This document shows, one piece after another, positions 29,290 through 63,047 of a stretch of 64,000 bases of DNA. Source of the DNA: a virus; the IMG/VR virus record IMGVR_UViG_3300044620_001243. The stretch is one strand, 5' to 3'. Positions within the stretch are counted from its first letter, which is position 1; the number at the start of each line of letters is the position of its first letter. Below the pieces are notes generated by a model. The model was not told the DNA's origin and did not search any database. It saw only the letters and a program-made list of their open reading frames with translations. A program made the position numbers and the translations under genes.

Positions 29290-29299
29290 AAAATAAGAT

Positions 29300-37006: not shown

Positions 37007-38032
37007 ATGAAAAAACTAGAATTAACAAAAGACGAATTGGAAAAACTTTATTATCTCCCCCCAAAGGATGTTGAGAAAGAAACAGAATTCCAAATAACCT
37101 ATCGAATGGGTAGAAACTCATTAGTGTTGGAGTTGATAAAAAAGATAGATGAGGAACTCACACCCTACATTGAATACCACGACAACGGAAATGTGTGGAT
37201 TAAAGGACAAGAGAACTCCGTAGGACAACGAGAAGGCATTTGGGAGTATTTCTGGGTGAACGGAAACATCGAAAGGAGAATCCCTTTTAAAGAGGGTAAG
37301 GTGGACGGTATTCAGGAGGTTTTCTATCCAAACGGGAACATCGATTTTAGAACCCCATTCAAAGATGGTAATATGGATGGAATTCAGGAGTGGTTTGATG
37401 AACAAGGAAACATCACCAAAACCACTCTATGGAAAAATGGTGAAGTAATTGAAGAAACTGAACCCGAACTCACACCATACGTTGAATACCACGACAACGG
37501 AAATGTAGCGGTAAAAGGACAAAAGAACTCCGTAGGACAGGAAGAAGGTATTTGGGAGTTCTTCTATTCAAACGGAAATATCCAATATTCAAACGGAAAT
37601 ATCCAATGTAGAACCCCATACAAAGAGGGTAAGGCGGATGGTATTCAGGAGGTTTTCTATGAAAGCGGAAACATCCATTGGAGAACCCCATACAAAGAGG
37701 GTAAGAGGGATGGAATTGAGGAGTGGTTCTATGAAAACGGAAACATCGAATGGAGAACCCCATACAAGGAGGGTAAGATGGATGGAATTGAGGAGCGGTT
37801 TGATAAACAAGGAAACATCAAATGGAGAATCCCATACAAAGAGGGAAAACTGATTGAAGAAACTAAACCCAAACCACAACCTGACCCACAACTAATTGAT
37901 TTTATGGCAATGAGATACAGACATGACTTTGGGTTTTTGGATGAAAAACACAAAGAATCCATCAGAATAACAATGAAACAACTTTGGGAAGAAGTTGTTG
38001 GTCTTGGATTTTATAAACCAAAATCAAAATAA
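37007..38032 (+). CDS. YwqK/MORN-variant repeat protein
   Basis: At least eight repeats of NGNI(E/H)WRTPYKEGKxDGIxE. A 3' block is nucleotide-identical to 34141-34360. Confidence 0.6.
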   Translation: MKKLELTKDELEKLYYLPPKDVEKETEFQITYRMGRNSLVLELIKKIDEELTPYIEYHDNGNVWIKGQENSVGQREGIWEYFWVNGNIERRIPFKEGKVDGIQEVFYPNGNIDFRTPFKDGNMDGIQEWFDEQGNITKTTLWKNGEVIEETEPELTPYVEYHDNGNVAVKGQKNSVGQEEGIWEFFYSNGNIQYSNGNIQCRTPYKEGKADGIQEVFYESGNIHWRTPYKEGKRDGIEEWFYENGNIEWRTPYKEGKMDGIEERFDKQGNIKWRIPYKEGKLIEETKPKPQPDPQLIDFMAMRYRHDFGFLDEKHKESIRITMKQLWEEVVGLGFYKPKSK

Positions 38033-38670: not shown

Positions 38671-39525
38671 ATGAATCAGAAAAACTTAATTATTCTCGGA
38701 GTTGCCGCCTTTATCTTAGGCCTCTTCTCTATGACCAGCTGTGAAATAATCGACGCTGGTCACGTTGGTGTTAAAGTCAATCTTTACGGCGACGGAAAAG
38801 GTATTGACGATGTGACCGAAGTCAATGGCAGGGTATTCTACAACCCCTTTACCACAAAAATTGTTGAATTTCCAACTTTTATCCAGCACAAAGAATACAA
38901 ACACAACGGAGAAGACAATCCCGATGAATCTTTTGTGGTCAACTCAAAAGATGGGTCAGAGTTTCATGTATCTCCATTATTGAACTATTCAGTCAAGAGG
39001 GAAAGAGTTCCTTATATTTTCGGTAAGTACCGAGTTACTCTGGATGAAATCGAATCTGGTTTCTTAAAAACAGCAGTCTATGATGCCTTTCGTGTTGTCG
39101 CAAATTCATACACCGCAGATGAATTGATTTCAAATCGTGAACAGTTCGAAGTAAAGGTTCGTAAGGTTTTGGTAACCCATCTCTTACCCGAAGGATTCAT
39201 ACTAGCACAATTTACATCTAATCTTGTCTATCCCGAAACATTCAAGAAAGCCATTGAAGCTAAGAACAATGCGGTTCAATCAGCACTCACCGCAGAGAAC
39301 AGAGTAAAACAAGCGGAGGCCGAGGCAAAAATCAAAATTGCACAAGCCGAAGGTAATGCTCAAGCAATGCTGACTTCGGCCAAGGCAGAAGCGGAGTCAA
39401 ACAGGATGAAACAACAAACCATTACACCTATGCTTCTACAACTTGAGTACATCAAGAAATGGAACGGAGTTGAACCCACAACACAATTGTGTTCAGGGTC
39501 AAATATGATGTATAACATAAAATAG
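38671..39525 (+). CDS. SPFH/band-7 (prohibitin-like) lipoprotein
   Basis: Lipoprotein signal (…FSMTSC), a band-7 core and an Ala/Glu-rich coiled-coil C-terminus. Confidence 0.7.
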   Translation: MNQKNLIILGVAAFILGLFSMTSCEIIDAGHVGVKVNLYGDGKGIDDVTEVNGRVFYNPFTTKIVEFPTFIQHKEYKHNGEDNPDESFVVNSKDGSEFHVSPLLNYSVKRERVPYIFGKYRVTLDEIESGFLKTAVYDAFRVVANSYTADELISNREQFEVKVRKVLVTHLLPEGFILAQFTSNLVYPETFKKAIEAKNNAVQSALTAENRVKQAEAEAKIKIAQAEGNAQAMLTSAKAEAESNRMKQQTITPMLLQLEYIKKWNGVEPTTQLCSGSNMMYNIK

Positions 39526-44411: not shown

Positions 44412-44603
44412 GAAATACCACGGTTTATTGGATAAAATTATGCAACCAAAAGAATCAAAAACAAATACCCATTTTCAATTAAGTTTGATAAAATCTCTTT
44501 TAAGGATATTAGGATGTATTTATCTATTCTTTGGGTGTACAAGTATGTTTGTAATTATTTTCATATTTGCAGAAATTCTTGGAATTTTAGAAGAAATTTT
44601 GTA

Positions 44604-44627
44604 GTTTGAATTTTTTTTCGTATATTT
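44604..44627 (+). promoter_or_regulatory. promoter box TTTG…CGTATATTTG upstream of tRNA-Met
   Basis: An exact TAnnTTTG -7 consensus. Confidence 0.45.
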
Positions 44628-44653
44628 GTATTCTGAATATGAAAATAAACAAT

Positions 44654-44727
44654 AGCGGGGTGGTGGCAGATGGTAGCCCGCCAGGCTCATAACCTGGAGG
44701 TCGTAGGTTCGAGTCCTACCCCCGCAA
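44654..44727 (+). tRNA. tRNA-Met (CAT); 1:72 A:A mismatch, could be an initiator or a tRNA-Ile2-type
   Basis: Anticodon stem CCAGG/CCTGG with loop CTCATAA. T-arm GTAGG-TTCGAGT-CCTAC. Acceptor AGCGGGG/CCCCGCA. Promoter box TATATTTG at 44620. Confidence 0.8.
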
Positions 44728-44791
44728 CCGTATAGTTTTTGTTCTTTGACATCTTGGGAATTAAAAGTAAAAGTCGAGAGACTTAAAAATT

Positions 44792-44901
44792 AGTCAGGTG
44801 GCGGAATTGGTAGACGCAAGTGAGAATAGTAATTGCGCTGATGTAGCGGCAGATGCAGTAAGTTATTATTCATACAGGTTCGAGTCCTGTCCTGACTACC
44901 A
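44792..44901 (+). tRNA. tRNA-like unit 1 (Leu-type scaffold, 56-nt variable core, CCA encoded)
   Basis: 5' AGTCAGGTGGCGGAATTGGTAGACGC … ACAGGTTCGAGTCCTGTCCTGACTACCA 3'. Acceptor strands are complementary. No canonical anticodon arm was found. Confidence 0.5.
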
Positions 44902-44992
44902 AAGAAACAAGTAAAACGCAAACGCACAGTCCCTTGATGCATCAGGTGAGGCGCACACTGTATACTGGATGACCTCTGTTTCTTTTTTAATC
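44902..44992 (+). repeat. 91-nt spacer, identical copy at 45370-45460
   Basis: Exact duplicate following the two CCA-encoding units 1 and 3. It contains an AGAAACA…TGTTTCT helix followed by a T-run (terminator-like). Confidence 0.7.
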
Positions 44993-45101
44993 AGTCAGGT
45001 GGCGGAATTGGATAGACGCATTGAGGAATCTAAACTTGGTAGCATTTGTTAGATTTAATAGTAATCCTCCTTCCTTACAGGTTCGACTCCTGTCCTGACT
45101 A
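44993..45101 (+). tRNA. tRNA-like unit 2 (variable core 57 nt)
   Basis: Same conserved flanks. The core has a GAGGA…TCCTC stem enclosing 37 nt. Confidence 0.5.
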
Positions 45102-45267
45102 CGACAGTTAGCAGATAATACTTGGTAGTTCTTGTAACGTCTGACTATGCGTGAGGTGGTTTTATAACTTTCCACCAGCTGGTCCAAAACTAAAAGTTAA
45201 TACAGGTTTAATAACGGGGTGAAGGAAAGTCTAACTAACAAGTACTTCACTACCTACTGTAAAAATT

Positions 45268-45369
45268 AGTCAGGTGACGAAATTGGTAGACGTGCCACGA
45301 ATAAAACTAAGTGGTGGAGAAACAGCTTTCAGGCACTCCATACAGGTTCGAGTCCTGTCCTGACTACCA
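45268..45369 (+). tRNA. tRNA-like unit 3 (CCA encoded; compensatory D-stem A10:T25)
   Basis: D-stem ACG/CGT versus GCG/CGC in the other units. Followed by the same 91-nt spacer as unit 1. Confidence 0.5.
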
Positions 45370-45460
45370 AAGAAACAAGTAAAACGCAAACGCACAGTCC
45401 CTTGATGCATCAGGTGAGGCGCACACTGTATACTGGATGACCTCTGTTTCTTTTTTAATC

Positions 45461-45558
45461 AGTCAGGTGGCGGAATGGTAGACGCACTGGACAGGCGATG
45501 CATTTAAAACAGAAATAAGCCCAGTCGGTACTTACAGGTTCGAATCCTGTCCTGACTA
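45461..45558 (+). tRNA. tRNA-like unit 4
   Basis: Conserved flanks. The core has an ACTGG…CCAGT stem with a 30-nt loop. Confidence 0.5.
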
Positions 45559-45926
45559 CAAATCTTAGGAGTAATTAACCTAAGACTGAGAGGTTCGAAA
45601 CTCTCGATTGGCTATGGTGTAATGGGCACAGAGAAACGGAGTACGAAAGGGGTTACGGGAATTTTCCCGCAAACATCAGAAACGGGACTCAGGATTATGG
45701 TTCGAATCCATATTAGTCAACAAGCCGTCTTTTTTTCTTGTCCGCCGTGGACGTGGATTGTTGAGACGTAAAAGTAACAATCGATTGATTAGAGAACGGT
45801 AGGATACAGGTTCACTAGACGAAGGTAGAAGTTTTTTTTTGATAGATGGGTTTGAGTTCTTTATAACAACAAACCAACTATAATTCAGTAGGGACAAATG
45901 GGAGCGGCTTACTCCAGTCCCGAAAT

Positions 45927-46085
45927 AGTCAGGTGGCGGAATTGGTAGACGCTATGAAATCATGTTTTAAGATTGAACGGGTAGGCAGACGTAACATATA
46001 GGTAAAAGAGTGTTATCGCCGAATACACTTATAAGGGTCCTATGAAAAAACTTCAATCATACAGGTTCAAGTCCTGTCCTGACTA
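45927..46085 (+). tRNA. tRNA-like unit 5 (110-nt core)
   Basis: Conserved flanks with T-arm ACAGGTTCAAGTCCTGT. The very long core suggests an insertion or intron. Confidence 0.45.
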
Positions 46086-46328
46086 CACGTTCCGAAACAG
46101 ACAACGGATAGTTCCACTATGAACGATGAGAAACAGGGTGATGTCCTGTATTAGTTATCGCCTCCCGAATGCGGTCGGGATAGGTTGACCACCTAAACAT
46201 CAGCAATGTGAACGGTCTATTTCTAACTCACCTACGTTTGTAAGACAACATAGAAGTGACGAGACGGGAAACTCGTCGTGAGGACATCCAAGACACCTGT
46301 AAGTTGGATAAATTAGGGTGTTATTTTT

Positions 46329-46451
46329 AGTCAGGTGTGGGTAAAAATGCGCTAACTGGAAACCCACTGAAAGCGAAAGCAAAGTCGAGGTCTAAATGCG
46401 CACTATGGCCGAGGTAATGGCGAGATACAGGTTCAAGTCCTGTCCTGACTA
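46329..46451 (+). tRNA. tRNA-like unit 6 (altered D region)
   Basis: Acceptor AGTCAGG/CCTGACT and T-arm conserved. The D region is replaced by TGGG…CCCA. Confidence 0.4.
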
Positions 46452-46596
46452 CAAAGACAATGGTTTTCCCCATTCAACGGATGTCGACAATCCAGAATGG
46501 AATCGGAATTCAGCACCCTCAGCCGAGGCGCCTCGTAAAACTACGATTAAGCTGTTAAGATTGGAGCGAGACGGGTACTCCATCATTGTCTTATTT

Positions 46597-46668
46597 GGTC
46601 GGTTCATCTAGAGGTTAGGATACAAGATTTTCATTCTTGTCACATGGGTTCGATTCCCATACCGACTA
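46597..46668 (+). tRNA. tRNA-Glu (TTC)
   Basis: Clean cloverleaf. Acceptor GGTCGGT/ACCGACT, D GGAT-loop-ATCT, anticodon stem CAAGA/TCTTG with loop TTTTCAT, T-arm ATGGG-TTCGATT-CCCAT. 72 nt. Confidence 0.8.
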
Positions 46669-46833
46669 CCTTGGAGGTATAGGGGTAAACCCTTGAGGCG
46701 AAGTACAAGCCATAGTCACTGAACTTAAACTGACCTCCAACCAAATTAGAAGTGTCGCAATACGCGTTTCAATCTAATTGATAGACGTATCAATGAAGAT
46801 GTTCGAGGGTGAAAATCCCAAGCTTCTAATCCT

Positions 46834-46938
46834 CCATTCTTAGTGTTATGTGGTTAAAACACGTTAACTCTTACATCGCCTGATTAGCGCTAATCCGAAT
46901 GTAAGACGAGTAAGTTGGTTCGAATCCAACAGAATGGA
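46834..46938 (+). tRNA. tRNA-like gene with distinct acceptor (CCATTCT/AGAATGG), canonical D and T arms, and a 26-nt insertion inside a TCTTAC/GTAAGA helix (possible intron-containing tRNA)
   Basis: D-arm GTGT-loop-ACAC and T-arm GTTGG-TTCGAAT-CCAAC. The core is too long for a type I tRNA and the anticodon is unresolved. Confidence 0.45.
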
Positions 46939-47216
46939 CAATGAGTAAGAGATACTCAGAGTCTTTGGTCTAAGACTTAAACAATAGACTCGCAGAATGT
47001 CTACGGCGTGAGTGGGACATCATGGGAACAAAGAAGAGTCACACACCTTCTCCCAGTAGTGTTGACAGGTTTTTATGTGGTAAGACACTAATGAAAAAGA
47101 CTCGTTCTATGGGGTACTTATCTGGAGTATCAAACAAGTGTGAGTGATATGGTTCTCGAACAGACAGAGAAACCCGTTAAAATCTACCCGTCTGGAATCT
47201 CAGGATGGGGAAACAT

Positions 47217-47319
47217 AGTCAGGTGGCGGAGTGGGCTAACGCTAACTTGGAAGAGTCTGAGGAGTGGTAACCAAGTACCTATACTCTGATGACCGCAGGT
47301 TCGAATCCTGTCCTGACTA
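47217..47319 (+). tRNA. tRNA-like unit 7
   Basis: Conserved flanks (D-loop variant AGTGGGCTAA, T-stem GCAGG). The core has a CTTGG…CCAAG stem. Confidence 0.45.
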
Positions 47320-47337
47320 CAAAAATAAATTAAAATT

Positions 47338-47598
47338 ATGTTTATAGAAAGATTTTTTAACCCCTATGTGTCATCTCACGAAAGGGTATTATATGAGAAT
47401 AAAGAAGCAATTGAACATTGTTTGAAATATCATACATGGATTAGACATTATTCATTTGAAGGTGATGAATATATCAAAAATGTTAATGGTAAATTAGTTT
47501 GGAATGATGGTAGTAAAGTTGATAAAAGAAAATTACCTAAAAAAGGAAAAGGATGGGGCAGATATTCAAGTGAACTTTATAATTTGTGTTCTTTTTAA
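47338..47598 (+). CDS. small hypothetical protein embedded in tRNA island
   Basis: 86-aa ORF that exactly fills the gap between units 7 and 8. Confidence 0.35.
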   Translation: MFIERFFNPYVSSHERVLYENKEAIEHCLKYHTWIRHYSFEGDEYIKNVNGKLVWNDGSKVDKRKLPKKGKGWGRYSSELYNLCSF

Positions 47599-47605
47599 AT
47601 TAAAT

Positions 47606-47751
47606 AGTCAGGTGGCGGAATTGGTTAGACGCTGTAAAAGTAAGATATGGGAATTGTGCACTCGGTAAACCTACGCACAAGGCTTAGATAGTTGTGCAAC
47701 AGCGGAAAGTCTTACAAAACTATCTTACAGGTTCGAATCCTGTCCTGACTG
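47606..47751 (+). tRNA. tRNA-like unit 8 (95-nt core closed by 8-bp GTAAGATA/TATCTTAC helix; discriminator G)
   Basis: Conserved flanks. The self-contained closing helix suggests an inserted element or intron. Confidence 0.45.
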
Positions 47752-47906
47752 CAAAATTAAAGATATGTTTAGAACATTAAATTATATTTGGAAATTGTTT
47801 TGGAAAAGACCTAGTAGAAGAGTATTTTTTATATTTTTTAGAATGCTAAAAACGGAAATTAAGTGTTTAATGTTGACTGGATACTCAACAGATGAATTAC
47901 TAAATT

Positions 47907-48033
47907 AGTCAGGTGGCGGAATTGGTAGACGCACGATTTATTGTTTAACGATGTGGCTCAATGTCCTAATGGATGAGAGAAAATAAACAGAGAAATATAC
48001 CACATACAGGTTCGAATCCTGTCCTGACTACCA
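47907..48033 (+). tRNA. tRNA-like unit 9 (CCA encoded)
   Basis: Conserved flanks with a 73-nt core. Confidence 0.45.
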
Positions 48034-48085
48034 AGTTAACCCACTAAGACTAGAAACGGGTGACACCTCGGAAAGACGAGGACAT

Positions 48086-48170
48086 AGTCAGGTGGCGGAA
48101 TGGATAGACGCGGCCCTATCAGGGGTAGAGGCGAAAGAAACTCATACAGGTTCGAATCCTGTCCTGACTA
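48086..48170 (+). tRNA. tRNA-like unit 10 (85 nt, type-II length)
   Basis: Conserved flanks. The 34-nt core forms CCCT-ATC-AGGG and GAG…CTC minihairpins but no 7-nt anticodon loop. Confidence 0.45.
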
Positions 48171-48278
48171 CACAGTGTTGGCTTCAAGGACCTATTAGGG
48201 AAGTACACTTAAATAAAACAAGAACGGGGAAAACACCGAATCTGCAGATAACGGCGAAGTACCAACGAAAGGTGAAAC

Positions 48279-48352
48279 GACCTCATAGCTTAATTGGTAA
48301 AGCACCTGGCTTTTAACCAGGGGAGTCCAGAGTTCGAGTCTCGGTGGGGTCA
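48279..48352 (+). tRNA. tRNA-Lys (TTT)
   Basis: Acceptor GACCTCA/TGGGGTC, D GCTT-AATTGGTA-AAGC, anticodon stem CCTGG/CCAGG with loop CTTTTAA, T-loop TTCGAGT. Confidence 0.85.
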
Positions 48353-48553
48353 CAAAGGTTGATTGGGGAATGATGGTGACAAAGACTTGAGAGTTTATGC
48401 CGGTCGTTACCATCGGAGTTGGGAGGTATAAACCTAAGCAATGCCAATCGTAAAAGGAGTTGTCCACTCGACCATCTTCTCCTTTCCTTTTTTTTAAAAA
48501 AATTCTTAAAGACACATTTTGGTTTTATCATTTTACTTTTGTATATTTTACAT

Positions 48554-48820: not shown

Positions 48821-49001
48821 TCAATGGAAAAGAAGTGACCAAGTTTACTTTAATAAAATTTTTGAATTTTTTTGGAATTCTCATTTCTTTTAGTTATATT
48901 TGTATCATATTCGTTCTTTGAAATATTAAAAATGTAATTAATACCATTAACACTTATAAATACCCTTTCTATAACGATATAAATAATTTATAGATATTTA
49001 T

Positions 49002-50435
49002 ATGTGTGAATTTTTACCAAAAAGAATGGGTTATAAGTTAGAATTACTTAAAAGTGCGTTAAGTATTGATGGGGTTGAATCAATAGATAATGTGATAAAT
49101 TGGATTTTACTTCAAAATAAATCAACACATATTTCTGTAAATCGTGTTGATTTAATGTCACTTAAAAATTGGTTTTTTTCAAATGACATTCAAAACATAT
49201 ATCATAAAACTGGTAAATTTTTTTCTATTGATGGAATAACAGTTAAAACTAATTGGGGAACTATTAATGAATGGGACCAACCCATTATTAACCAACCTGA
49301 AATAGGGTTTTTAGGGTTTATCACACAAGAAATAAATGGGGTTTTACATTTCTTATTACAAGCTAAGATTGAACCAGGAAACGTAAATTATGTGCAATTA
49401 TCCCCAACTTTACAAGCCACACGTAGTAATTACACTCAAATTCATAGAGGAAATAAACCTTTTTTTCTTGAATATTTTTTAAATGTTAAATCAGAAAACA
49501 TTCTTTTTGACCAGTTACAATCTGAACAAGGTGCTCGTTTTTTGCGAAAACGAAACAGAAACATTATTATTAAAGTTGACGAACCAATAAAGCCACCTTC
49601 TAATTTTATGTGGTTAACTTTAGGTCAACTCAAACTATTAATGAAGATGTCTAATATCGTAAATATGGATACAAGAACAGTAATTTCTGGTATTTTATTT
49701 GACGGTCTTTCTCAATTTAATTATGAACAAATCATGAATGAAAAAGGAATAGTTCCTTCTGATTTGGGTGTTTCATTTTTTAAATCTGCAATTCTTAATG
49801 AAGGGTCTCTTCATAGTATTGAAGAGATAATTACATTTTTAACTAAACACAAAAGTTTTTTTGAAATTTTTATTGAACGAATACCACTTACTCATTTACG
49901 TAAATGGGAAGTCAAATCAGACGAGATTGTACGTCCTGATAATAAATATTTTAAAATTATTGGTGTAAATGTTGAAATTGATAATCGAGAAGTATCTAAT
50001 TGGGACCAACCGATGTTAATGCCATTGCAAGAAGGTATTTGTGCCATGATTGTTAAAAACATAAATGGTGTAATGCATTTTTTAATGTTAGCAAAATTAG
50101 AGTGTGGTAATCATGATATTATTGAATTTGCACCAACTATTCAACACACATCAACTGGCAATGATTTGTCATCTAATTGTCCACCATTTTTAAATTATGT
50201 GCTTGAATCCAATGAAAAACAAATAATTTACGACACTTATCAATCAGAAGAAGGTGGTAGATTTTATCGAGAACAAAATAGGTATCTAATTGTCCTCGCA
50301 GATGAAGATTTTAAAAACGAAGTGCCTGAAAATTATATTTGGATGACATTGTATCAAATTCAAGTTTTTTTAAAATTTAACAATTATATTAATATACAGG
50401 CACGTAGTCTTATCGCGGCTATTTCTTATTTATGA
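49002..50435 (+). CDS. NDP-hexose 2,3-dehydratase-like (two-domain) protein
   Basis: Internal duplication (…EIGFLGFITQEINGVLHFLLQAKIEPGN… and …EGICAMIVKNINGVMHFLMLAKLECGN…), typical of EvaA/TylX3-type 2,3-dehydratases. Confidence 0.55.
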   Translation: MCEFLPKRMGYKLELLKSALSIDGVESIDNVINWILLQNKSTHISVNRVDLMSLKNWFFSNDIQNIYHKTGKFFSIDGITVKTNWGTINEWDQPIINQPEIGFLGFITQEINGVLHFLLQAKIEPGNVNYVQLSPTLQATRSNYTQIHRGNKPFFLEYFLNVKSENILFDQLQSEQGARFLRKRNRNIIIKVDEPIKPPSNFMWLTLGQLKLLMKMSNIVNMDTRTVISGILFDGLSQFNYEQIMNEKGIVPSDLGVSFFKSAILNEGSLHSIEEIITFLTKHKSFFEIFIERIPLTHLRKWEVKSDEIVRPDNKYFKIIGVNVEIDNREVSNWDQPMLMPLQEGICAMIVKNINGVMHFLMLAKLECGNHDIIEFAPTIQHTSTGNDLSSNCPPFLNYVLESNEKQIIYDTYQSEEGGRFYREQNRYLIVLADEDFKNEVPENYIWMTLYQIQVFLKFNNYINIQARSLIAAISYL

Positions 50436-51418
50436 AAAAACGTTTTGTTGTTGGTATCATGGGTTGTGCAAGTATTGCTGAGAGAATGATGATTCCGGCA
50501 ATACAAAATAGTTTGTATTTTGATTTAAAATTAATAGCGAGTAGGTCTCAATCAAAAGCAAAACAATTTGCTCAAAAGTTTAATATTGAGGCGGTAGTTG
50601 GTTATGAGAATTTATTAAACAATCCAAATATAGAAGTCATATATATGCCTCTCCCAACTGGTCTTCATTTAGAATGGGCAATAAAAACATTAAATGCGGG
50701 AAAACATTTACTTATAGAAAAATCATTAGCAAATAATTACGAAGAAACTAAAACGATAGTATCTTTAGCAAAAAAGAAAGGACTTCTTGTTATGGAAAAT
50801 TTTATGTTTCAGTATCACAGTCAGATGGGTGAATTAAGTAAATTATTAGATTCACATGTAATAGGTGATATTCGTTCTGTACATATTAGTTTTGGATTCC
50901 CACCATTCAAAGATTCCTCTAATATTCGTTACTCTCATGAGCTTGGGGGTGGGTCGTTACTTGATGCGGGGTCATATACATTGAAAATCGCTCAATTATT
51001 ACCTGTAGGTAAATTAAAAATTCAAGGAGCCAGTTTAGTTCAATCAAGAACCCATGGTGTTGATATTTCAGGAGAATGTTTTCTAACTACTAATCAAGGT
51101 ATAGGAATACACACTTCTTTTGGATTTCAACACTATTATCAGTGTAAATTAGAAATATGGGGTAGTCAAGGTAAAATCATCGCTCATCGTATTTTTACCG
51201 CTGGTCCGAATGTGATTCCTAAAATTGAAGTTGAAACAGAAAAAAAAACCATTCAAATATCTACTTCCGCAGATAATCACTTTATAAATCTATTGTCTCA
51301 TTTTGGAAATTGCTTACAACAAATGGATTTTATTGAGTCTGAATATCAATTACTTTTACAACAATCGTATTTATTGGAGGAATTAAGGTTAAAAGCCGAA
51401 ATTTTTTATCAAAATTGA
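50432..51418 (+). CDS. Gfo/Idh/MocA-family NAD(P)-dependent oxidoreductase
   Basis: N-terminal Rossmann fold (VVGIMGCASIAERM) and EKP-like (LIEKSLA). ATGA overlap with the dehydratase. Fits a 3-ketoreductase partner. Confidence 0.7.
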   Translation: MKKRFVVGIMGCASIAERMMIPAIQNSLYFDLKLIASRSQSKAKQFAQKFNIEAVVGYENLLNNPNIEVIYMPLPTGLHLEWAIKTLNAGKHLLIEKSLANNYEETKTIVSLAKKKGLLVMENFMFQYHSQMGELSKLLDSHVIGDIRSVHISFGFPPFKDSSNIRYSHELGGGSLLDAGSYTLKIAQLLPVGKLKIQGASLVQSRTHGVDISGECFLTTNQGIGIHTSFGFQHYYQCKLEIWGSQGKIIAHRIFTAGPNVIPKIEVETEKKTIQISTSADNHFINLLSHFGNCLQQMDFIESEYQLLLQQSYLLEELRLKAEIFYQN

Positions 51419-51469
51419 TAAAAAAAACACAAATACAATCTTAAAATTTACGTAAGATATTTATATCAT

Positions 51470-52702
51470 ATGAGAGAATTAATTAGAAAAATTTTATATG
51501 AGACGGTTGGTGTGCCTTCAGGTATCACCACAGTCGGAAAAAACATTTATAATAAATTAATGGAGTATTTGAGACAAAATCCGGATTTTGCTATAAATGG
51601 TCAAGAAATAAGATTTTACAATGAAGATGGACCCAACGGTCGTATATTTGACTTTGCAGATGTTGGACCAGAATATATCAATATATATATAAATTTAAGA
51701 GAAGTAGATAGTGATGAACTTAATAGATACGTTATGATAGGACTTGGTCTAAGAGAACATATCAAGTTTAACGTAGATACATTAAAAGTTGACATACCAC
51801 CAAGAAATTTCATTAGTTTAAATTTTAATATTGCATATCCGTCCAACGACACTCCAAAACCTGAAAGTGTTATTGATTTATTAAAAAAAGATACGGAAAC
51901 AGAAAAATATGATAATGGAATTGATATAATATCCTCAATCGTTCACGAAATTATGCATGATTACGATTCATTTAAAAAGAAAAGAGAGGGGGTAAGAGAA
52001 AGGACAAAATACTCAAACGCGGCGAATAAACGATTTGGTATTAAAGTTATTGATAAATTTATTTATAATACCTATTTTGTCACCAATATTGAATCGACTG
52101 TTAGACCAAGTGAGATTTTTTCTAAATTTGAATTAATGAATGTAACCCAAGAAACTTTTTTGGAAGAATTAAGAAAGACCAAAACATACGAGAAATTAAA
52201 AGAAATCGAAAGCTTTACGTATGATAAATTTATAGAAAGATTAAAAAATGAAGTTGATTTAGATAGCCCACCCAAGACAGATAATATGACCGAGGAAGAA
52301 AAAGTTAAATTATTTTTAAAGAGAGTATATGTTGCATTTCACCAAAGTTTTGTTGATTTGTTGCCAAGATTTTTAGGAATGGAAACTTTCACATCAATTT
52401 TAGATAGTGATGACACCAAAGAGAAGAAAAGAAATATGTACGATAAACTTTCCAATGAAGTTGTTAGAAACGTTGATAACCCAATAGATTATTTTCAAAA
52501 GACAATAAAAAGAAATTCATTTCTTGCTCAAAACGCAATAAAAAGGATTTCAAAAATTTATTCACTATTACCATCATCAAAAAATCAAAATAATTCAATA
52601 AATCCAAATATTGCATTAAAAGAATATGATTATTTTCCAGAAAAAAGGGTAAAGTTGGGTGGAGTAAAAATTAAACGTCTTAATTTTAAAAAAGATAACT
52701 GA
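51470..52702 (+). CDS. hypothetical protein
   Basis: 410-aa ORF. Confidence 0.4.
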   Translation: MRELIRKILYETVGVPSGITTVGKNIYNKLMEYLRQNPDFAINGQEIRFYNEDGPNGRIFDFADVGPEYINIYINLREVDSDELNRYVMIGLGLREHIKFNVDTLKVDIPPRNFISLNFNIAYPSNDTPKPESVIDLLKKDTETEKYDNGIDIISSIVHEIMHDYDSFKKKREGVRERTKYSNAANKRFGIKVIDKFIYNTYFVTNIESTVRPSEIFSKFELMNVTQETFLEELRKTKTYEKLKEIESFTYDKFIERLKNEVDLDSPPKTDNMTEEEKVKLFLKRVYVAFHQSFVDLLPRFLGMETFTSILDSDDTKEKKRNMYDKLSNEVVRNVDNPIDYFQKTIKRNSFLAQNAIKRISKIYSLLPSSKNQNNSINPNIALKEYDYFPEKRVKLGGVKIKRLNFKKDN

Positions 52703-52746
52703 AATGGTTTTTTACACATCTTGTTAATTTTATATATTTATTATAT

Positions 52747-53517
52747 ATGAAAATAATAAGATTAGTTGAAGAAATTGTTATTGATAAATATAGGTTAAAA
52801 CTATTGACCGAAAACCTTGAGGTTTTTTTATCAAAAAATGTTGGAAATGAGGGTCAGGTAACACAAGAAGAGTACGATAAAATTGATAAAACATTTAGTA
52901 AATACGGCCAGGGTTACGTTCAATGGATGGTAAGGAGAATAAATGAAAAGAAAATAAAACTTGAAGATTTAATTCAATGGGATATCATTATTGATACTTA
53001 TATTAAACCAATATACAAAAATGAATGGGCTCAAAGTGGGGTTCCAAGGGATATCAATCAAATTAAAACGTTGGATGATATTGTAATGTTATCTAAAGCA
53101 TCCCAAGATGTTAGAAGTAAACATAGAGAATCTATGGGTATTACTTCCGATGTTGATGTTCTTGATACAAATAATTATCTAAGTCCGAAAGACATTCAGA
53201 GATTAAAAAATGTGGGAATTATTTTTCATGGCATTGTTGAGGGATATCAATTATTTCAAGTACCACCTTCCGCTGCAAATTTTAATGAGGACCAATGGAA
53301 AGTTTATAAAGGAATACTCGGCCAATGTGCGAACCGTGAAAGTGAAAAAGTTGCATTATGTACGGTGGCCACATTAGAACATTTTCATCATTACCTTAAT
53401 CTACATCCAGATTCCTCTTATTGGGTTTTGTTTAATTTGGGTGACCCGTTGTCCCCATATCAGTTTCATTATGAAAGTGGTCAATTTATGCATAAAAATA
53501 ATCTTACCATCTTATAA
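52747..53517 (+). CDS. hypothetical protein
   Basis: 256-aa ORF. Confidence 0.4.
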   Translation: MKIIRLVEEIVIDKYRLKLLTENLEVFLSKNVGNEGQVTQEEYDKIDKTFSKYGQGYVQWMVRRINEKKIKLEDLIQWDIIIDTYIKPIYKNEWAQSGVPRDINQIKTLDDIVMLSKASQDVRSKHRESMGITSDVDVLDTNNYLSPKDIQRLKNVGIIFHGIVEGYQLFQVPPSAANFNEDQWKVYKGILGQCANRESEKVALCTVATLEHFHHYLNLHPDSSYWVLFNLGDPLSPYQFHYESGQFMHKNNLTIL

Positions 53518-53524
53518 TTAGAAA

Positions 53525-54256
53525 ATGGATAAAGATAAATTAAAAAATATCATTACCAGAATTGGTCAAATAAATCCAAAATATGAATTGGAAAATATTC
53601 TGCCTCAATCGCCAAAATTAATTAAATTAATGCCTAAATTAATTCAACTCATGGGTGACCCATTAGAAGATGCTCAATTGGCTGCAGTTAAAAAAGATGG
53701 TTTAACAATCGAATATATCGTTAAAGGTGGAATCACCCCATCAGAAGATGTTCAATTGGCTGCAGTTAACGAAAATGGTTATGCAATCCAATATATCATT
53801 AATGGTGGAATCGTCCCATCAGAAGGTGTTCAATTGGCTGCAGTTAACAAAAAGGGTTATGCAATCTCAAATATCATTAAAGGTGGAATCGTCCCATCAG
53901 AAGATGTTCAATTGGCCGCAGTTAACGAAGAGGGTTATGCAATAGGATATATCATTGATGGTGGAATCGTCCCATCAGAAGGTGTTCAATTGGCCGCAGT
54001 TAATAATAATGGTTATGCAATCCAACATATCATTAATGGTGGAATCGTTCCATCAGAAGGTGTTCAATTGGCCGCAGTTAACAAAAAGGGTTTATCAATC
54101 GAATATATCATTGATGCCGGAATCATTCCATCAGAAGATGTTCAATTTGGAGCAGTTAATTATAATGGTTTATCAATCCAATATATCATTGATGCTGGAA
54201 TCACCCCATCAGAACGTGTAAAAGAACTTGCTCGTTCCAAGGGTGTTCAAATATAA
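53525..54256 (+). CDS. DUF4116-like repeat protein (paralog 1 of 3)
   Basis: N-terminus MDKDKLKNIITRIGQINPKYELENI, then about eight 24-aa repeats (GI(T/V)PSEDVQLAAVNxNGYAIQYII). C-terminus SERVKELARSKGV. Confidence 0.5.
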   Translation: MDKDKLKNIITRIGQINPKYELENILPQSPKLIKLMPKLIQLMGDPLEDAQLAAVKKDGLTIEYIVKGGITPSEDVQLAAVNENGYAIQYIINGGIVPSEGVQLAAVNKKGYAISNIIKGGIVPSEDVQLAAVNEEGYAIGYIIDGGIVPSEGVQLAAVNNNGYAIQHIINGGIVPSEGVQLAAVNKKGLSIEYIIDAGIIPSEDVQFGAVNYNGLSIQYIIDAGITPSERVKELARSKGVQI

Positions 54257-54261
54257 ATAAC

Positions 54262-54897
54262 ATGGATAAAGATAAATTAAAAAATATCATTACCAGAATT
54301 GGTCAAATAAATCCAAAATATGAATTGGAAAATATTCTGCCCCAATCACCAAAATTAATTCAATTCATGGATAATCCATCAGAAGATGTTCAATTGGCCG
54401 CAGTTAAAAAAGATGGTTTAACAATCTATTATATCATTGAAGCCGGAATCGTCCCATCTGAAGATGTTCAATTGGCTGCAGTTAATAATAATGGTTCATC
54501 AATCTATCAAATCATATATGATGCTGGAATCACCCCATCAGAAGATGTTCAATTGGTTGCAGTTAAAAAAGTGGGCGACTTAATCTATGATATCATTAAA
54601 GTCGGAATAACCCCATCAGAAGATGTTCAATTGGCTGCGGTTAATAATAATGGTTCATCAATAGGATATATCATTAACGGTGGAATCACCCCATCAGAAG
54701 ATGTTCAATTGGCCGCTGCTAATCAAAATGGTAGGGTAATCCAATATATCATTAAAGCTGGAATCACCCCATCAGAAGATGTTCAATTGGCCGCAGTTAA
54801 TAATAATGGTTATGCAATCCAACATATCATTAACGCCCGAATCACCCCATCAGAACGTGTAAAAGAACTTGCTCGTTCCAAGGGTGTTAATATATAA
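54262..54897 (+). CDS. DUF4116-like repeat protein (paralog 2)
   Basis: The first 100 or so nt are nearly identical to paralog 1. Same repeat and C-terminal block. Confidence 0.5.
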   Translation: MDKDKLKNIITRIGQINPKYELENILPQSPKLIQFMDNPSEDVQLAAVKKDGLTIYYIIEAGIVPSEDVQLAAVNNNGSSIYQIIYDAGITPSEDVQLVAVKKVGDLIYDIIKVGITPSEDVQLAAVNNNGSSIGYIINGGITPSEDVQLAAANQNGRVIQYIIKAGITPSEDVQLAAVNNNGYAIQHIINARITPSERVKELARSKGVNI

Positions 54898-54902
54898 GTT
54901 AT

Positions 54903-55616
54903 ATGGATAAAGATAAATTAAAAAATATCATTACCAGAATTGGTCAAATAAATCCAAAATATGAATTGGAAAATATTGTGCAGCAAGCGCCACAATTAAT
55001 TCAATTCATGGATAATCCATCTGAAGAAATTCAATTGGCCGCGGTTGAAAAAGATGGTAAATATATAAAAAATATTATTGAAAGTGGAATCAAACCATCA
55101 GAAGATGTTCAATGGACAGCTGTTAATCAAGGTGGTCAGTCACTTTATTTTATCCTTGAAGCCGGAATCGTCCCATCTGAAGATGTTCAGTTGGCAGCGG
55201 TTAGAAGTAGAGGTTCGGCAATCCAATTTATCATTGAAGCTGGAATCATTCCATCAGAAGATGTTCAATGGTTTGCGGTTAACGAAAATGGTTATGTAAT
55301 CCAAGATATCATTGATGCCGGAATCACCCCATCAGAACGTGTTCAATTGGCCACAGTTAATTATAATGGTTTGTTAATCAAATATATCATTGATGTCGGA
55401 ATCACCCCATCAGAACGTGTTCAATTGGCTGCTGTTAATCAAAATGGTTTGTCAATCAAAGATATCATTGAAGCCGGAATCGTCCCATCTGAAGATGTTC
55501 AGTTGACTGCAGTTAGAAGTAGAGGTTCGGCAATCCAATTTATCATTTATAATGGTGGAATCAAACCATCAGAACGTGTAAAAGAACTTGCTCGTTCCAA
55601 GGGTATTAATATATAA
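54903..55616 (+). CDS. DUF4116-like repeat protein (paralog 3)
   Basis: Same N- and C-terminal blocks, with the repeats more diverged. Confidence 0.5.
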   Translation: MDKDKLKNIITRIGQINPKYELENIVQQAPQLIQFMDNPSEEIQLAAVEKDGKYIKNIIESGIKPSEDVQWTAVNQGGQSLYFILEAGIVPSEDVQLAAVRSRGSAIQFIIEAGIIPSEDVQWFAVNENGYVIQDIIDAGITPSERVQLATVNYNGLLIKYIIDVGITPSERVQLAAVNQNGLSIKDIIEAGIVPSEDVQLTAVRSRGSAIQFIIYNGGIKPSERVKELARSKGINI

Positions 55617-57467: not shown

Positions 57468-58595
57468 ATGAGACACGAAAAATTGATTGAAAAACATTTA
57501 GGTATTAACACACCTGATTGGGTTAAAGAAAAAGTAAATAATGCCATAGATGAAGCACTTGGTTATAATTTGAAAAAATCTGAAGAACTCACACCATACA
57601 TTGAATACTACTCCAACGGAAATGTACTTGTCAAAGGACAAAAGAACTCCAAAGGACAAGAAGAAGGTCTTTGGGAGTGGTTCTATAAAAACGGAAACAT
57701 CCGTATGAGAATCCCATACAAAGAGGGTAAGGAAGATGGAATTGAGGAGGTTTTCTATGAAAACGGAAACATCAGTATGAGAATCCCATACAAGGAGGGT
57801 AAGATGGATGGAATTCGGGAGTGGTTTGATAAACAATGGAACATCAAAGCAAGAATCCCATTCAAAGAGGGTAAGGAGGATGGAATTGCGGAGTGGTTTG
57901 ATGAACAGGGAAACATCACCGAAACCCGTGTATGTAAAAATGGTGAAGTAATTGAAATAACTAAACCCGAACTCACACCCCACATCGAATACTACTCCAA
58001 CGGGAACGTAAGGGTCAAAGGACAAAGGAATTCCAAAGGACAACGAGAAGGTATTTGGGAGTGGTTTTTTGAGAACGGAAACATCCTATGTAGAACCCCG
58101 TACAAAGAGGGTAATATGGATGGTATTGAGGAGTTGTTCTATGAAAACGGAAACACCAAATGGAGAATCCCATACAAAAATGGCGTGGAGGATGGAGTTC
58201 AGGAGTGTTTTGATGAACAGGGAAACATCACCGCGACCAGTCATTGGAAAGATGGTGAAGTAATTGAAGAAACTAAACCCGAACTCACACCCCACATTGA
58301 ATACTACCCCAACGGAAATGTATGGTTCAAAGGTCAAAAGAACTCCAAAGGACAACGAGAGGGGATTTGGGAGATTTTTTGGATGAACGGAAACATCGAA
58401 TGGAGAACTTCTTACAAAGAGGGTAAGGAGGATGGTATTGATGAGGGGTTCTATTCAGACGGAAACATCCGTTGTAGAACCCCATACAAAGAGGGTAAGG
58501 AGGATGGAATTGAGGAGCGGTTTGATGAACAAGGAAACATCACCGAAACCCGTCATTGGAAAGACGGGGAAATAATTGAAGAAACTAAACACTAA
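57468..58595 (+). CDS. YwqK/MORN-variant repeat protein
   Basis: 375 aa with at least 12 repeats. Paralog of 37007..38032 and 33973..34452. Confidence 0.6.
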   Translation: MRHEKLIEKHLGINTPDWVKEKVNNAIDEALGYNLKKSEELTPYIEYYSNGNVLVKGQKNSKGQEEGLWEWFYKNGNIRMRIPYKEGKEDGIEEVFYENGNISMRIPYKEGKMDGIREWFDKQWNIKARIPFKEGKEDGIAEWFDEQGNITETRVCKNGEVIEITKPELTPHIEYYSNGNVRVKGQRNSKGQREGIWEWFFENGNILCRTPYKEGNMDGIEELFYENGNTKWRIPYKNGVEDGVQECFDEQGNITATSHWKDGEVIEETKPELTPHIEYYPNGNVWFKGQKNSKGQREGIWEIFWMNGNIEWRTSYKEGKEDGIDEGFYSDGNIRCRTPYKEGKEDGIEERFDEQGNITETRHWKDGEIIEETKH

Positions 58596-61222: not shown

Positions 61223-61412
61223 TCGAATCCTGACTGCAAATCAAATCAACTAAAAACAAAACAAATGAAAAATAAGTTAAAAACAATTTGGCATGATTTT
61301 TGGACTGACCCCCTATACTACATTGTAATTATGTCGTATATTGGTTTGCTTTTAATTATGTTAATAGTTAGTGTGGCTTGGTTTATCCAACCTTTAATAA
61401 AATAACAAAACA

Positions 61413-61501
61413 GTCAGGTGGTGGAATTGGTTAGACCGTCCCCTCCCTTAAGTGGAAGGGGGAGACCGAAAGGTATACAGGTTCGAATCCTGTCCTGACT
61501 A
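61413..61501 (+). tRNA. tRNA-like unit a (89 nt; D-stem shifted with compensatory changes)
   Basis: GGTGG/CCGT D-arm variant. The core folds best as a CTCCCTT/AAGGGGG helix with an AAGTGG loop rather than as an anticodon arm. An alternative reading as tRNA-Leu (CUUAAGU loop) would need a mismatch. Confidence 0.45.
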
Positions 61502-61685
61502 CTAAAAATTAAAGAATTATGAAAATAAAAGTACACTTATTAAGTCAATCTAAACCGATTGAATATGAGGATGTGAAAAACGCATACACAAAAAGCGGTT
61601 TGTATTGTGTCTATCTAAAAAACAATCAAGTACACAAATACCCTTTGTGTAATGTATTTAGAATTGAAGAAGATTATTAAAACAT

Positions 61686-61768
61686 AGTCAGGTGGCGAAA
61701 TTGGATAGACGCTAGGGAAACCTTCCCGAGAATGAAAGTTCATATAGGTTCGAGTCCTGTCCTGACAA
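61686..61768 (+). tRNA. tRNA-like unit b (83 nt; A1:A72 mismatch)
   Basis: 3' acceptor CCTGACA. The core has a GGGAA-ACC-TTCCC minihairpin. Confidence 0.4.
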
Positions 61769-61784
61769 CTAAAAATTAAAGAAT

Positions 61785-61967
61785 ATGGAATGGGTTGAAA
61801 TTAAAAATGGAAAACCAAAAGATGGTAGTTGGGTACTAATTCAAAGTTCTTTGAAGAACGTACCGAAATATGAGGTTTGCTATTATGAAAATGATGAATG
61901 GTACATACCTTCGTATAATGATGTATGTGAAGAGAAACATATTATTAAATGGTCGTACATTGAATAA
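61785..61967 (+). CDS. small hypothetical protein
   Basis: 60 aa, lying between units b and c. Confidence 0.35.
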   Translation: MEWVEIKNGKPKDGSWVLIQSSLKNVPKYEVCYYENDEWYIPSYNDVCEEKHIIKWSYIE

Positions 61968-61973
61968 TCAAAC

Positions 61974-62096
61974 AGTCAGGTGGCGGAATTGGTAGACGTA
62001 TAGAGTAGGGAGTAGCACTCCATTTATGGTAAGGCAAGCAAATAAGACCTAACCCTCTAAGGTAGCACCATACAGGTTCGAATCCTGTCCTGACTA
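61974..62096 (+). tRNA. tRNA-like unit c (123 nt)
   Basis: Conserved flanks (D 3' strand CGT). The core contains GGAGT-AGC-ACTCC. Confidence 0.4.
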
Positions 62097-62115
62097 CAAA
62101 CAAACAAAAAAAAAT

Positions 62116-62322
62116 ATGAGTCAATTTATCAACACAAATCACGCAAACGAAGCGGCAAGAGAAGCCTTTCAGGGTTATAGGAAAGACACAGAAAGAATCA
62201 AACAAATCAGACAGATGTTACAGAATGGTGAATCTGTTAGCAATGAAGATATTCTTTGGTTGTGTCAAAGAGCTCAATCAGGCATACTACAAGAAGAATC
62301 AAGTTGGTATGACCACGGATAA
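62116..62322 (+). CDS. small hypothetical protein
   Basis: 68 aa, after an AAACAAACAAAAAAAAATATG leader. Confidence 0.35.
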   Translation: MSQFINTNHANEAAREAFQGYRKDTERIKQIRQMLQNGESVSNEDILWLCQRAQSGILQEESSWYDHG

Positions 62323-62328
62323 AAATAT

Positions 62329-62435
62329 AGTCAGGTGGCGGAATTGGTAGACGCAATAAGGCATGGAAACATGCGCATCATGACGGATTGGTGATATTAG
62401 CCAAAGTTATACAGGTTCGAATCCTGTCCTGACTA
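62329..62435 (+). tRNA. tRNA-like unit d (107 nt)
   Basis: Conserved flanks. The core contains GCATG-GAAAC-ATGC. Confidence 0.4.
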
Positions 62436-62454
62436 CAATAAAAAAACAAAACAA

Positions 62455-62943
62455 ATGAAACTAAATCAAAACTCACTCTCGGCAAAACTCTATCGTTGGT
62501 TCTATAAAACCGACACAATGCCAACCAACCTATGTCCTTACTTTTGGAAACTGGTCACTGCGGTGATTCTTTCACCTTTGCTTGCAATTCACACCCTACC
62601 CTATGAAATCATCAACTACAAACGTCAGCGTTGGGATACATACAGTGATATGCTCGGAATATCGCTTGTTTGTTGGTGCCTTATCGCTGTTGTTATTTGC
62701 ATGATTTCATCATTGGGTCTTTTCTTTTACATCCCTGATAAGGGTTCATCACTTTGGACAATGATGTCAATCGGTCTTATTTGTTGGGGTACCCTTATCC
62801 TAGTTGGCATTACTTGGGCTATTACTAAAACAGTAGTATACTTAAAATCAAAGAAGAGTGATAATGAAAAGACAGACAACATCATCGTTGAAATGGTGAA
62901 AGCAAAGTATCACAAATACTGCCCTAAAATTGATTGGAAGTAA
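62455..62943 (+). CDS. small integral membrane protein
   Basis: 162 aa with 3-4 TM segments. Leader AAAAACAAAACAAATG. Confidence 0.4.
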   Translation: MKLNQNSLSAKLYRWFYKTDTMPTNLCPYFWKLVTAVILSPLLAIHTLPYEIINYKRQRWDTYSDMLGISLVCWCLIAVVICMISSLGLFFYIPDKGSSLWTMMSIGLICWGTLILVGITWAITKTVVYLKSKKSDNEKTDNIIVEMVKAKYHKYCPKIDWK

Positions 62944-62950
62944 AACAAAT

Positions 62951-63028
62951 AGTCAGGTGGCGGAATGGTAACGCAGCTCGCGGTGTACACAAAGGGGTGA
63001 ATTGCAGGTTCGAATCCTGTCCTGACTA
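62951..63028 (+). tRNA. tRNA-like unit e (78 nt)
   Basis: Conserved flanks (D-loop AATGGTAA, T-stem GCAGG) with a 29-nt core. Confidence 0.4.
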
Positions 63029-63047
63029 CAATAAAAAAACAAAACAA

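Follow-up and report, generated by a model that had tools for sequence, protein, structure and literature searches.

A predicted 2,3-dehydratase–ketoreductase cassette in a large uncultivated phage

In the current analysis, we describe two overlapping genes, predicted to encode a nucleoside diphosphate (NDP)-hexose 2,3-dehydratase and a C-3 ketoreductase, in 64,000 nucleotides (nt) of viral DNA (IMG/VR record IMGVR_UViG_3300044620_001243); the whole of this stretch is referred to as the window. An initial annotation, made from the letters of the DNA, had proposed that an internally duplicated protein of 477 amino acids (aa) and the overlapping Gfo/Idh/MocA gene form a deoxysugar-biosynthesis pair in a phage. 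The locus holds the following features, in which dTDP stands for deoxythymidine diphosphate:

48859..51454, no strand assigned: cassette of promoter, dehydratase and ketoreductase, 2,596 bp, replaced in the sibling contig L153
48871..48902, plus strand: promoter-like motif of Bacteroidota type, TTTG-N20-TATATTTG, lying within the cassette some 100 nt ahead of the dehydratase start
49002..50435, plus strand: predicted NDP-hexose (dTDP-4-keto-6-deoxy-D-glucose) 2,3-dehydratase of the EvaA family, 477 aa (two PF03559 matches, EvaA match)
50432..50435, plus strand: ATGA stop/start overlap, in the sequence ...TTA TGA / ATG AAA...
50432..51418, plus strand: predicted KijD10-type NDP-hexose C-3 ketoreductase with a Gfo/Idh/MocA fold, 328 aa (KijD10 match, Pfam)

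The two enzymes and their cassette

The 477-aa protein carries two tandem stretches of the Nudix-like family PF03559 (Pfam E=8e-145, 479.7 bits against a cutoff of 25), and the internal duplication is therefore real; the N-terminal half of a bacterial homologue likewise matches the C-terminal half of the phage protein (33% over 221 aa, E=2.5e-36). Its sole relative in the PDB is EvaA (4j7g), which matches at full length through both domains (E=2e-95), with 39% identity across 425 residues. In pocket A of EvaA, mutation of either E139 or E190 abolishes activity (reviewed among sugar dehydratases in PMC8987622). The corresponding phage residues, E124 (in AKIEPGN) and E175 (in LQSEQGA), are invariant in a 19-sequence alignment. 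Of the 163 columns invariant among 18 bacterial homologues, 153 are unchanged in the phage protein, and the ten changes are mostly conservative. Because of this homology, and because rmlA and rmlB accompany the closest homologues in their bacterial clusters, the substrate is predicted to be dTDP-4-keto-6-deoxy-D-glucose. Searches of PHROGs, NCBIfam and PADLOC with the dehydratase returned no match.

The 328-aa protein combines a GFO_IDH_MocA N-terminal domain (PF01408, E=7e-22) with a C3 domain (PF22725, E=7e-15), and the Pfam scores of both cassette proteins are far beyond chance. KijD10 (PDB 3rbv) is clearly its best match (E=6e-61, versus 3e-29 for the next PDB family), with 36% identity across 315 residues. 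The KijD10 residues K102, D182 and Y186 correspond to K97, D178 and Y182 of the phage protein, positions that are at least 95% conserved among 78 homologues, and the LLDxGxY motif that includes D178 and Y182 is present. Asp182 and Tyr186 of KijD10 lie near its catalytic lysine and presumably have roles beside it. That lysine has been identified as Lys102 (PMC11167396). The phage protein departs from none of the 22 columns with at least 95% conservation in the same 78 homologues. By analogy, purely, with KijD10 and OleW, reduction at C-3 would be predicted to give an equatorial 3-hydroxyl group. This reductase has no match in PHROGs or PADLOC and only generic Gfo-family matches below cutoff in NCBIfam, and among GenBank phage records it finds weak generic Gfo matches (at most 33% identity), mostly to unannotated fragments.

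Since their catalytic and conserved residues are intact, both genes look active. They meet in an ATGA overlap, an arrangement typical of translational coupling, which suggests that dehydratase and reductase are probably coupled. Both enzyme assignments of the initial annotation are borne out: the two ORFs lie on the plus strand at exactly the coordinates given, matches to EvaA and KijD10 were obtained when the proteins were checked against these enzymes, and the 477-aa protein falls into PF03559 and no unrelated family.

The limits of the cassette are set by comparison with a sibling phage. Contig L153 aligns to the window at 97.9% identity up to position 48858 and at 98.2% from 51455 onward, and in place of the window's 2,596 bp it has a slot of 929 bp holding an unrelated 258-aa minus-strand open reading frame (ORF), in which an HNH-like motif is discernible by eye only and for which Pfam gives no match. 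The window-specific segment starts 12 nt before the promoter-like motif and ends 36 nt past the reductase stop, so that it forms a self-contained unit of promoter, dehydratase and reductase. Because a sibling of about 98% identity does without it, the cassette is dispensable, and the pair is an accessory, strain-variable module. An exact-flank search of IMG/VR for further siblings found none.

Matches to TTTG-N17-21-TAnnTTTG, which we take to be the Bacteroides/Flavobacterium promoter consensus, number 15 in the window against 5.5 ± 2.4 expected (none of 100 shuffles reached 15), and those on the plus strand fall mostly in intergenic gaps ahead of genes. A scan of the window for sigma-70 promoters and terminators was uninformative (34 sites against 28 expected).

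That a piece of bacterial DNA was wrongly joined to phage sequence in assembly, or that the two genes are decaying and non-functional, might be suspected from the bacterial nearest relatives of the pair and from the aberrant join that one contig (L001) shows in a neighbouring transfer RNA (tRNA) island. Against this stand the phage-like composition and codon usage of the genes: GC content is 0.29 for the dehydratase and 0.31 for the reductase, and GC at third codon positions is 0.18 and 0.20, all at the phage background. The same pair with its flanks was moreover assembled independently, with the same junctions, in contigs from at least six samples, three of these contigs (L002-L004) spanning both sides, and the dehydratase protein sequence is 100% identical across samples; the pair is therefore no assembly artefact. 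Samples containing the phage are ERZ27272064, ERZ27272055, SRR27430018, SRR10955592 and JGI 3300034071 and 3300034280. With intact catalytic and conserved residues and a promoter motif of phage or host type besides, we regard an artefact or decay as having a negligible probability.

Bacterial origin, viral counterparts and the phage replicon

Beyond identical copies, the nearest relatives of the dehydratase share 57-61% identity with it and are nearly all from Bacteroidota; the nearest bacterial reductases reach 54% identity. In a scan of one genome per species, at least 591 species had a dehydratase relative, and the best 80 loci, almost all from Bacteroidota, were analysed. The reductase directly follows the dehydratase in 70 of these 80, and most of the others end at a contig edge. 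A third enzyme comes next in nearly all of the loci: 49 have a DegT aminotransferase there and 17 have an RmlD-like 4-ketoreductase. Often rmlA or rmlB lies within 8 kb. In the best-matching metagenome-assembled genome (MAG), the pair stands between rmlA/rmlB and a flippase with Wzy, that is, in a surface-polysaccharide cluster. A neighbour-joining tree nests the phage dehydratase in a Bacteroidota-dominated clade. Judged by these relationships, the cassette is of bacterial origin and came from Bacteroidota polysaccharide clusters; its GC content and third-position GC are those of the phage, so the transfer is old and the genes are adapted to the phage. It shows the attributes of an auxiliary metabolic gene or moron: host derivation, a promoter motif of its own, variability among close relatives and phage-like composition.

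The pairing of an EvaA-family dehydratase with a KijD10-like reductase, usually then followed by DegT, was also noted as such (L031-L110, GTDB genomes) and occurs in at least 591 species genomes. Because the pair is widespread in Bacteroidota, although the literature treats the family as one of antibiotic pathways, 2-deoxy or 4-amino-2,4,6-trideoxy sugars may be common in the surface glycans of this phylum.

Other viruses carry related genes. Neither DNA nor protein searches of 50,697 GenBank phage records gave a homologue of the dehydratase, and a single-sequence scan of IMG/VR returned nothing; with an alignment as query, 14 IMG/VR contigs were found to encode dehydratase homologues with 33-47% identity to the window copy by tblastn (33-45% in the trimmed alignment). 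In the tree, these form separate clades that are no closer to the window copy than are the bacterial ones, and this separation, together with the low identity, argues for independent acquisitions.

One lineage of jumbo myoviruses (L011-L013, L016, L017, L021; 22-254 kb) is bona fide viral, with a terminase, a 1083-aa tail sheath and a T4-type topoisomerase II, and has the dehydratase-reductase pair as in the window. Unlike the window, it places dehydratase, reductase, DegT, a PglD-like acetyltransferase and a family 2 glycosyltransferase (GT2) between the tail-sheath and topoisomerase genes. Loci L019 and L022, again unlike the window, have RmlA, with or without RmlB, and tailoring enzymes beside the pair, and further contigs (L009, L010, L014, L015, L018) hold more divergent dehydratase copies. 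These independent viral versions show that phages captured the module repeatedly, and, by its gene content, the window has the most reduced version of it.

The phage context that the initial annotation had assumed is well founded. The window has about 30% GC (some 70% A+T), is coded nearly all on the plus strand and contains tRNA genes. Its phage-typical genes encode a T4 Rnl1-type RNA ligase, a UvrD-type helicase, an M23 peptidase/endolysin-like protein and the thymidylate synthase ThyA, and a DenV-type pyrimidine-dimer glycosylase and several families known from PHROGs only are also present. The best phage relatives of the helicase are Bacteroides phages of 167-179 kb, and Flavobacterium phages provide its most numerous matches. 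No relative of the window at the DNA level was found in the GenBank phage collection. The gene next to the cassette, which encodes a 410-aa protein, has a relative in 36 IMG/VR contigs (12.7-309 kb, GC 0.28-0.34), about two thirds of which share one to eight other window genes at 23-72% identity; in none of these 36 related viral loci, with flanks examined up to 10 kb per side, did a dehydratase or reductase lie near the homologue. Since promoter motif, gene relatives and nearest homologues all point to Bacteroidota, the replicon, a large uncultivated phage, most likely has a host in that phylum.

Several features of the replicon were recorded in passing. A second indel relative to L153 spans 52704-55612, where a 256-aa orphan ORF and three tandem paralogues are missing from the sibling; the paralogues (53525-55616) have DUF4116-type repeats and DNA that is about 80% identical, and in L153 the 410-aa gene abuts an HD-domain gene at the place of this indel. 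At 44600-48400 and 61400-63100, thirteen plus-strand copies of GGTTCGAATCCTGTCCTGACTAC correspond to a tRNA T-arm and 3' acceptor strand, each with a single complementary 5' strand 79-160 nt upstream. The GGTTCGAATCCTGTCCTGACTAC family is a set of tRNA-like genes with a common acceptor stem and T-arm, most of them far too long for normal tRNAs. At default settings, ARAGORN calls six tRNAs in the whole window, of which two belong to the thirteen copies; a further three long matches come from Rfam, and ARAGORN with introns allowed reports 17 genes, 11 of them with "introns" of 8-73 nt. In contigs L001, L002, L028 and L153, the two tRNA islands (44.7-48.1 and 61.4-63.0 kb) are joined differently via a shared repeat of about 28 nt, L001 running straight from 62097 to 48003; these differing joins stem either from mosaicism among strains or from chimeric assembly at the repeat.

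Elsewhere, a 443-aa ORF (13894-15225) consists almost entirely of PVVEE/PVIEE-type repeats; its DNA repeats internally many times, a long antisense ORF arises as a by-product, and it matches PHROGs of unknown function weakly. The MORN_2 (YwqK-like) repeat proteins at 33973-34446, 37007-38032 and 57468-58595 are three paralogues with a GC content above that of surrounding genes, and the stretch at 37.2-37.8 kb is about 78% identical to that at 57.6-58.5 kb. An SPFH/Band-7 lipoprotein-like gene (38671-39525) has a GC content of 0.41, above the phage background, and shares 71% identity with a gene of the dehydratase-bearing jumbo-myovirus lineage (L011-L013), to which the window is otherwise unrelated.

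Pathway partners and the role of the cassette

No RmlA, RmlB, RmlD-like or DegT gene was found in the 64-kb window by tblastn at 1e-5. Profile hidden Markov models (HMMs) of the same four families, built from 12-57 sequences and run unfiltered on all six-frame ORFs of the window, gave a best E-value of 0.03 (0.1 for RmlA/RmlB), with positive controls at 8e-208 and 8e-118. The phage genome is incomplete, and these negatives cover the window. A full pathway to a dTDP-2,6-dideoxyhexose or a 4-amino-2,4,6-trideoxyhexose is not encoded there, as RmlA/RmlB, a finishing enzyme and a glycosyltransferase at the same locus are all missing. The third-gene position (51470-52702) is occupied by the 410-aa protein, an orphan. 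HExxH is invariant in its family, and one relative of it is encoded in a lysis/structural region of a phage where no sugar genes lie. This protein and the downstream 256-aa protein were considered as hidden pathway enzymes and rejected; neither has Pfam, PHROG or PDB relatives.

Because the window holds only the two committed steps of C-2 deoxygenation, host or distant phage enzymes would have to supply the substrate and finish the sugar. We lean, with moderate confidence, to the reading that the pair is a host-derived accessory cassette of a large Bacteroidota phage that diverts host dTDP-sugar into a surface 2-deoxy sugar. The cassette would probably be transcribed from its own host-type promoter. 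The dehydratase would take host dTDP-4-keto-6-deoxy-D-glucose, the product of RmlA/RmlB at the branch point to dTDP-L-rhamnose, and eliminate the 2-hydroxyl group to give dTDP-3,4-diketo-2,6-dideoxyglucose; the reductase, with NAD(P)H, would then reduce the C-3 ketone to yield dTDP-4-keto-2,6-dideoxyhexose. The host, or phage genes outside the locus, would have to provide the substrate and to complete the sugar by 4-ketoreduction or 4-transamination, followed by glycosyl transfer. Most likely, dTDP-sugar flux in infected cells would thereby be channelled into a 2-deoxy sugar that becomes part of a surface glycoconjugate, and the cell surface would change in the course of infection. An altered surface glycoconjugate seems the most economical role and would be in line with phage auxiliary genes described for O-antigen nucleotide sugars, namely rmlB, rmlD, gmd and rmd (PMC12911398).

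A few points weigh against this reading. It presupposes that the host makes the substrate and can finish the product. The third enzyme, near-universal elsewhere, is missing here, so that the pair could serve a different purpose such as draining a precursor. In addition, the genome is incomplete and a glycan island to the left of the window holds GT2_5, methyltransferase, oxidoreductase, short-chain dehydrogenase/reductase (SDR)-like and epimerase-like genes; therefore, phage enzymes and a phage-chosen acceptor could complete the pathway.

This minus-strand island belongs to the same phage lineage (L023/L024 1-6200, L112, L113, L114 5400-13100). Its genes encode a GT2_5 protein, an FkbM-type methyltransferase, a DAO-type flavin adenine dinucleotide (FAD) oxidoreductase, a 349-aa protein of unknown type, a 255-aa SDR-like protein and a xylose-isomerase-like TIM barrel, for which 3-keto-glucoside 4-epimerase and psicose 3-epimerase are the nearest matches. 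A walk of about 10 kb to the left of the window met such glycan-type genes and found no RmlA, RmlB or clear 4-ketoreductase.

The possibility that phage enzymes elsewhere finish the 4-keto-2,6-dideoxy intermediate, and that phage transferases attach the sugar to an acceptor of the phage's choosing, such as virion proteins, draws on this island, since the SDR-like protein and the TIM-barrel epimerase are candidate finishers and the lineage has at least three glycosyltransferase-type genes. It also has parallels in the independent jumbo-myovirus lineage, whose branch is self-sufficient and includes a transferase, and in giant viruses, which make rare sugars and attach them to the fibrils of their own capsids (PMC9614988). 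However, the island and the window's GT2 cluster lie 20-50 kb from the cassette in other transcription units, and versions of the island occur in related lineages at 64-95% identity. The SDR-like protein, tried as a 4-ketoreductase, cannot be called one because its GalE match reaches only E=0.19 and YGTNR replaces YxxxK. The near-identical sibling without the cassette means, furthermore, that any glycosylation directed by the phage is optional. We consider this course of events unlikely.

The lack of a third step bears equally on the idea that the pair makes no finished sugar and instead drains dTDP-4-keto-6-deoxyglucose, thereby stopping rhamnose-type glycans and/or freeing dTDP from labile 2-deoxy sugar nucleotides for AT-rich DNA. 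The steps encoded are just the two that divert the precursor irreversibly, ThyA is an investment of the phage in its thymidylate supply, and the phage genome is about 70% A+T; the product of 2,3-dehydratases is, moreover, chemically unstable and loses dTDP. Yet a coupled 3-ketoreductase that keeps 22 of 22 conserved columns would be needless for mere destruction of the substrate, dTDP-sugar pools are small relative to the demand of DNA synthesis, and the literature searched offers no precedent. Sabotage or salvage of this kind thus appears quite improbable.

In a more elaborate form, the cassette would be a device for surface editing or superinfection exclusion, of a chemical type that is new. 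The pair would convert the host dTDP-rhamnose precursor into its 2-deoxy analogue, and host RmlC/RmlD-type enzymes and rhamnosyltransferases would incorporate 2-deoxy-L-rhamnose (L-olivose); promiscuity of RmlC and RmlD is assumed. If so, the receptor polysaccharide would be rewritten, or chain-terminated at 1->2 linkages, without any phage-encoded transferase, and the presence or absence of the cassette among siblings of about 98% identity would reflect host-strain-specific arms races. We regard this as an unlikely, speculative version of events.

The initial annotation had further linked the pair to GT2, RpiB and pyridoxal phosphate (PLP)-dependent aminotransferase genes elsewhere in the window, and these links are not supported. 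The aminotransferase (22711-23811) was rejected as a sugar aminotransferase: it belongs to class I/II (PF00155), with HisC, CobD and DapL as nearest relatives, and the DegT profile does not match it. Together with a GlnII-type glutamine synthetase (1807-2958) and a YafV-type omega-amidase (29734-30498; 259 bits against an NCBIfam cutoff of 249), it resembles the glutamine transaminase/omega-amidase route, and this grouping suggests nitrogen metabolism. GT2 and RpiB lie in a separate, tight cluster (27873-30498) with an LpxH/YfcE-like metallophosphatase and the omega-amidase, 20 kb from the cassette. A related viral locus (L126), with no dehydratase in the stretch examined, has a counterpart of the GT2-metallophosphatase pair at 49-64% identity. 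Viral locus L019 encodes an RpiB homologue (34%) as well, at a distance of 7 kb from its dehydratase. As regards a Gtr-type seroconversion module of a temperate phage, which comprises the flippase GtrA, the bactoprenol glucosyltransferase GtrB and GtrC, what was seen is a weak GtrB-like PHROG match of the distant GT2.

The same annotation had offered DNA hypermodification or host-glycan remodelling as the purpose of the sugar. A deoxysugar placed on phage DNA bases would evade restriction, phages do glycosylate DNA (T-even phages with glucose; PMC9614988), and a generic GT2 is encoded in the window. But no hydroxymethyl-pyrimidine route was found: ThyA scores 300.7 bits against a thymidylate-synthase equivalog cutoff of 108. 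The window's 2-oxoglutarate (2OG) oxygenase, examined as a TET/JBP enzyme, was rejected because it matches prolyl 4-hydroxylases. There is no PHROG match of DNA-glycosyltransferase type; the GT2 finds a weak GtrB-like PHROG match (E=2e-9) and also polysaccharide families, and the cassette is missing from the sibling. We know of no DNA sugar modification that uses a dTDP-sugar donor. Hypermodification is accordingly very unlikely; host-glycan remodelling is plausible but unproven.

Significance and relation to known systems

The enzymes themselves are textbook, and the cassette belongs to a known class of viral nucleotide-sugar auxiliary genes and reveals no new kind of system. What is notable is its minimal form and its clean presence/absence polymorphism, and the genes are very rare in phages. 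C-2 deoxygenation has been regarded as a hallmark of actinomycete antibiotics, and reviews place 2,3-dehydratases in antibiotic biosynthesis (PMC8987622); the pair proves common in Bacteroidota polysaccharide clusters, and phages have taken up the EvaA/KijD10-type pair several times independently. In the window phage, the pair is reduced to a minimal cassette that has its own promoter motif and varies between strains. The sibling, which naturally lacks the cassette, makes an isogenic comparison readily available, by which one could ask what benefit a phage draws from making 2-deoxy sugars. The pair may also serve as a compact, two-gene, low-GC enzyme source for the chemoenzymatic synthesis of dTDP-2,6-dideoxy sugars.

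Among known viral systems, the closest in concept are phage O-antigen nucleotide-sugar genes (rmlB, rmlD, gmd, rmd, galE) and the sugar pathways of giant viruses, in which host-like enzymes likewise reshape glycans (PMC12911398; PMC9614988). The window differs from these in its branch of sugar chemistry: C-2 deoxygenation by viruses and phage or viral 2,3-dehydratases are unreported in the literature searched, and the dehydratase has no PHROG family.

Among enzymes, the phage dehydratase shares its double Nudix-like PF03559 architecture with the dTDP-4-keto-6-deoxyglucose 2,3-dehydratases EvaA of Amycolatopsis orientalis, TylX3, OleV, Gra-orf27 and KijB1, and its likeness to EvaA extends over the full length and to both catalytic glutamates. 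EvaA-type members act in actinomycete antibiotic pathways (PMC8987622), whereas the phage copy appears to derive from Bacteroidota polysaccharide clusters. The reductase resembles C-3 ketoreductases of the KijD10 (Actinomadura kijaniata) and OleW type in its Gfo/Idh/MocA fold, in its conserved Lys, Asp and Tyr, and in the position of its gene directly downstream of a 2,3-dehydratase; unlike those systems, the phage pair has no 5-epimerase or 4-ketoreductase partner encoded nearby. The closest relatives are the surface-polysaccharide modules of Bacteroidota (the L007/L031 MAG and loci of Flavobacterium and Pontibacter), which have the same gene order and spacing. There, however, a third enzyme follows and the genes stand amid rmlA/rmlB, flippase and Wzy, whereas the phage copy consists of two genes and a promoter motif of its own.

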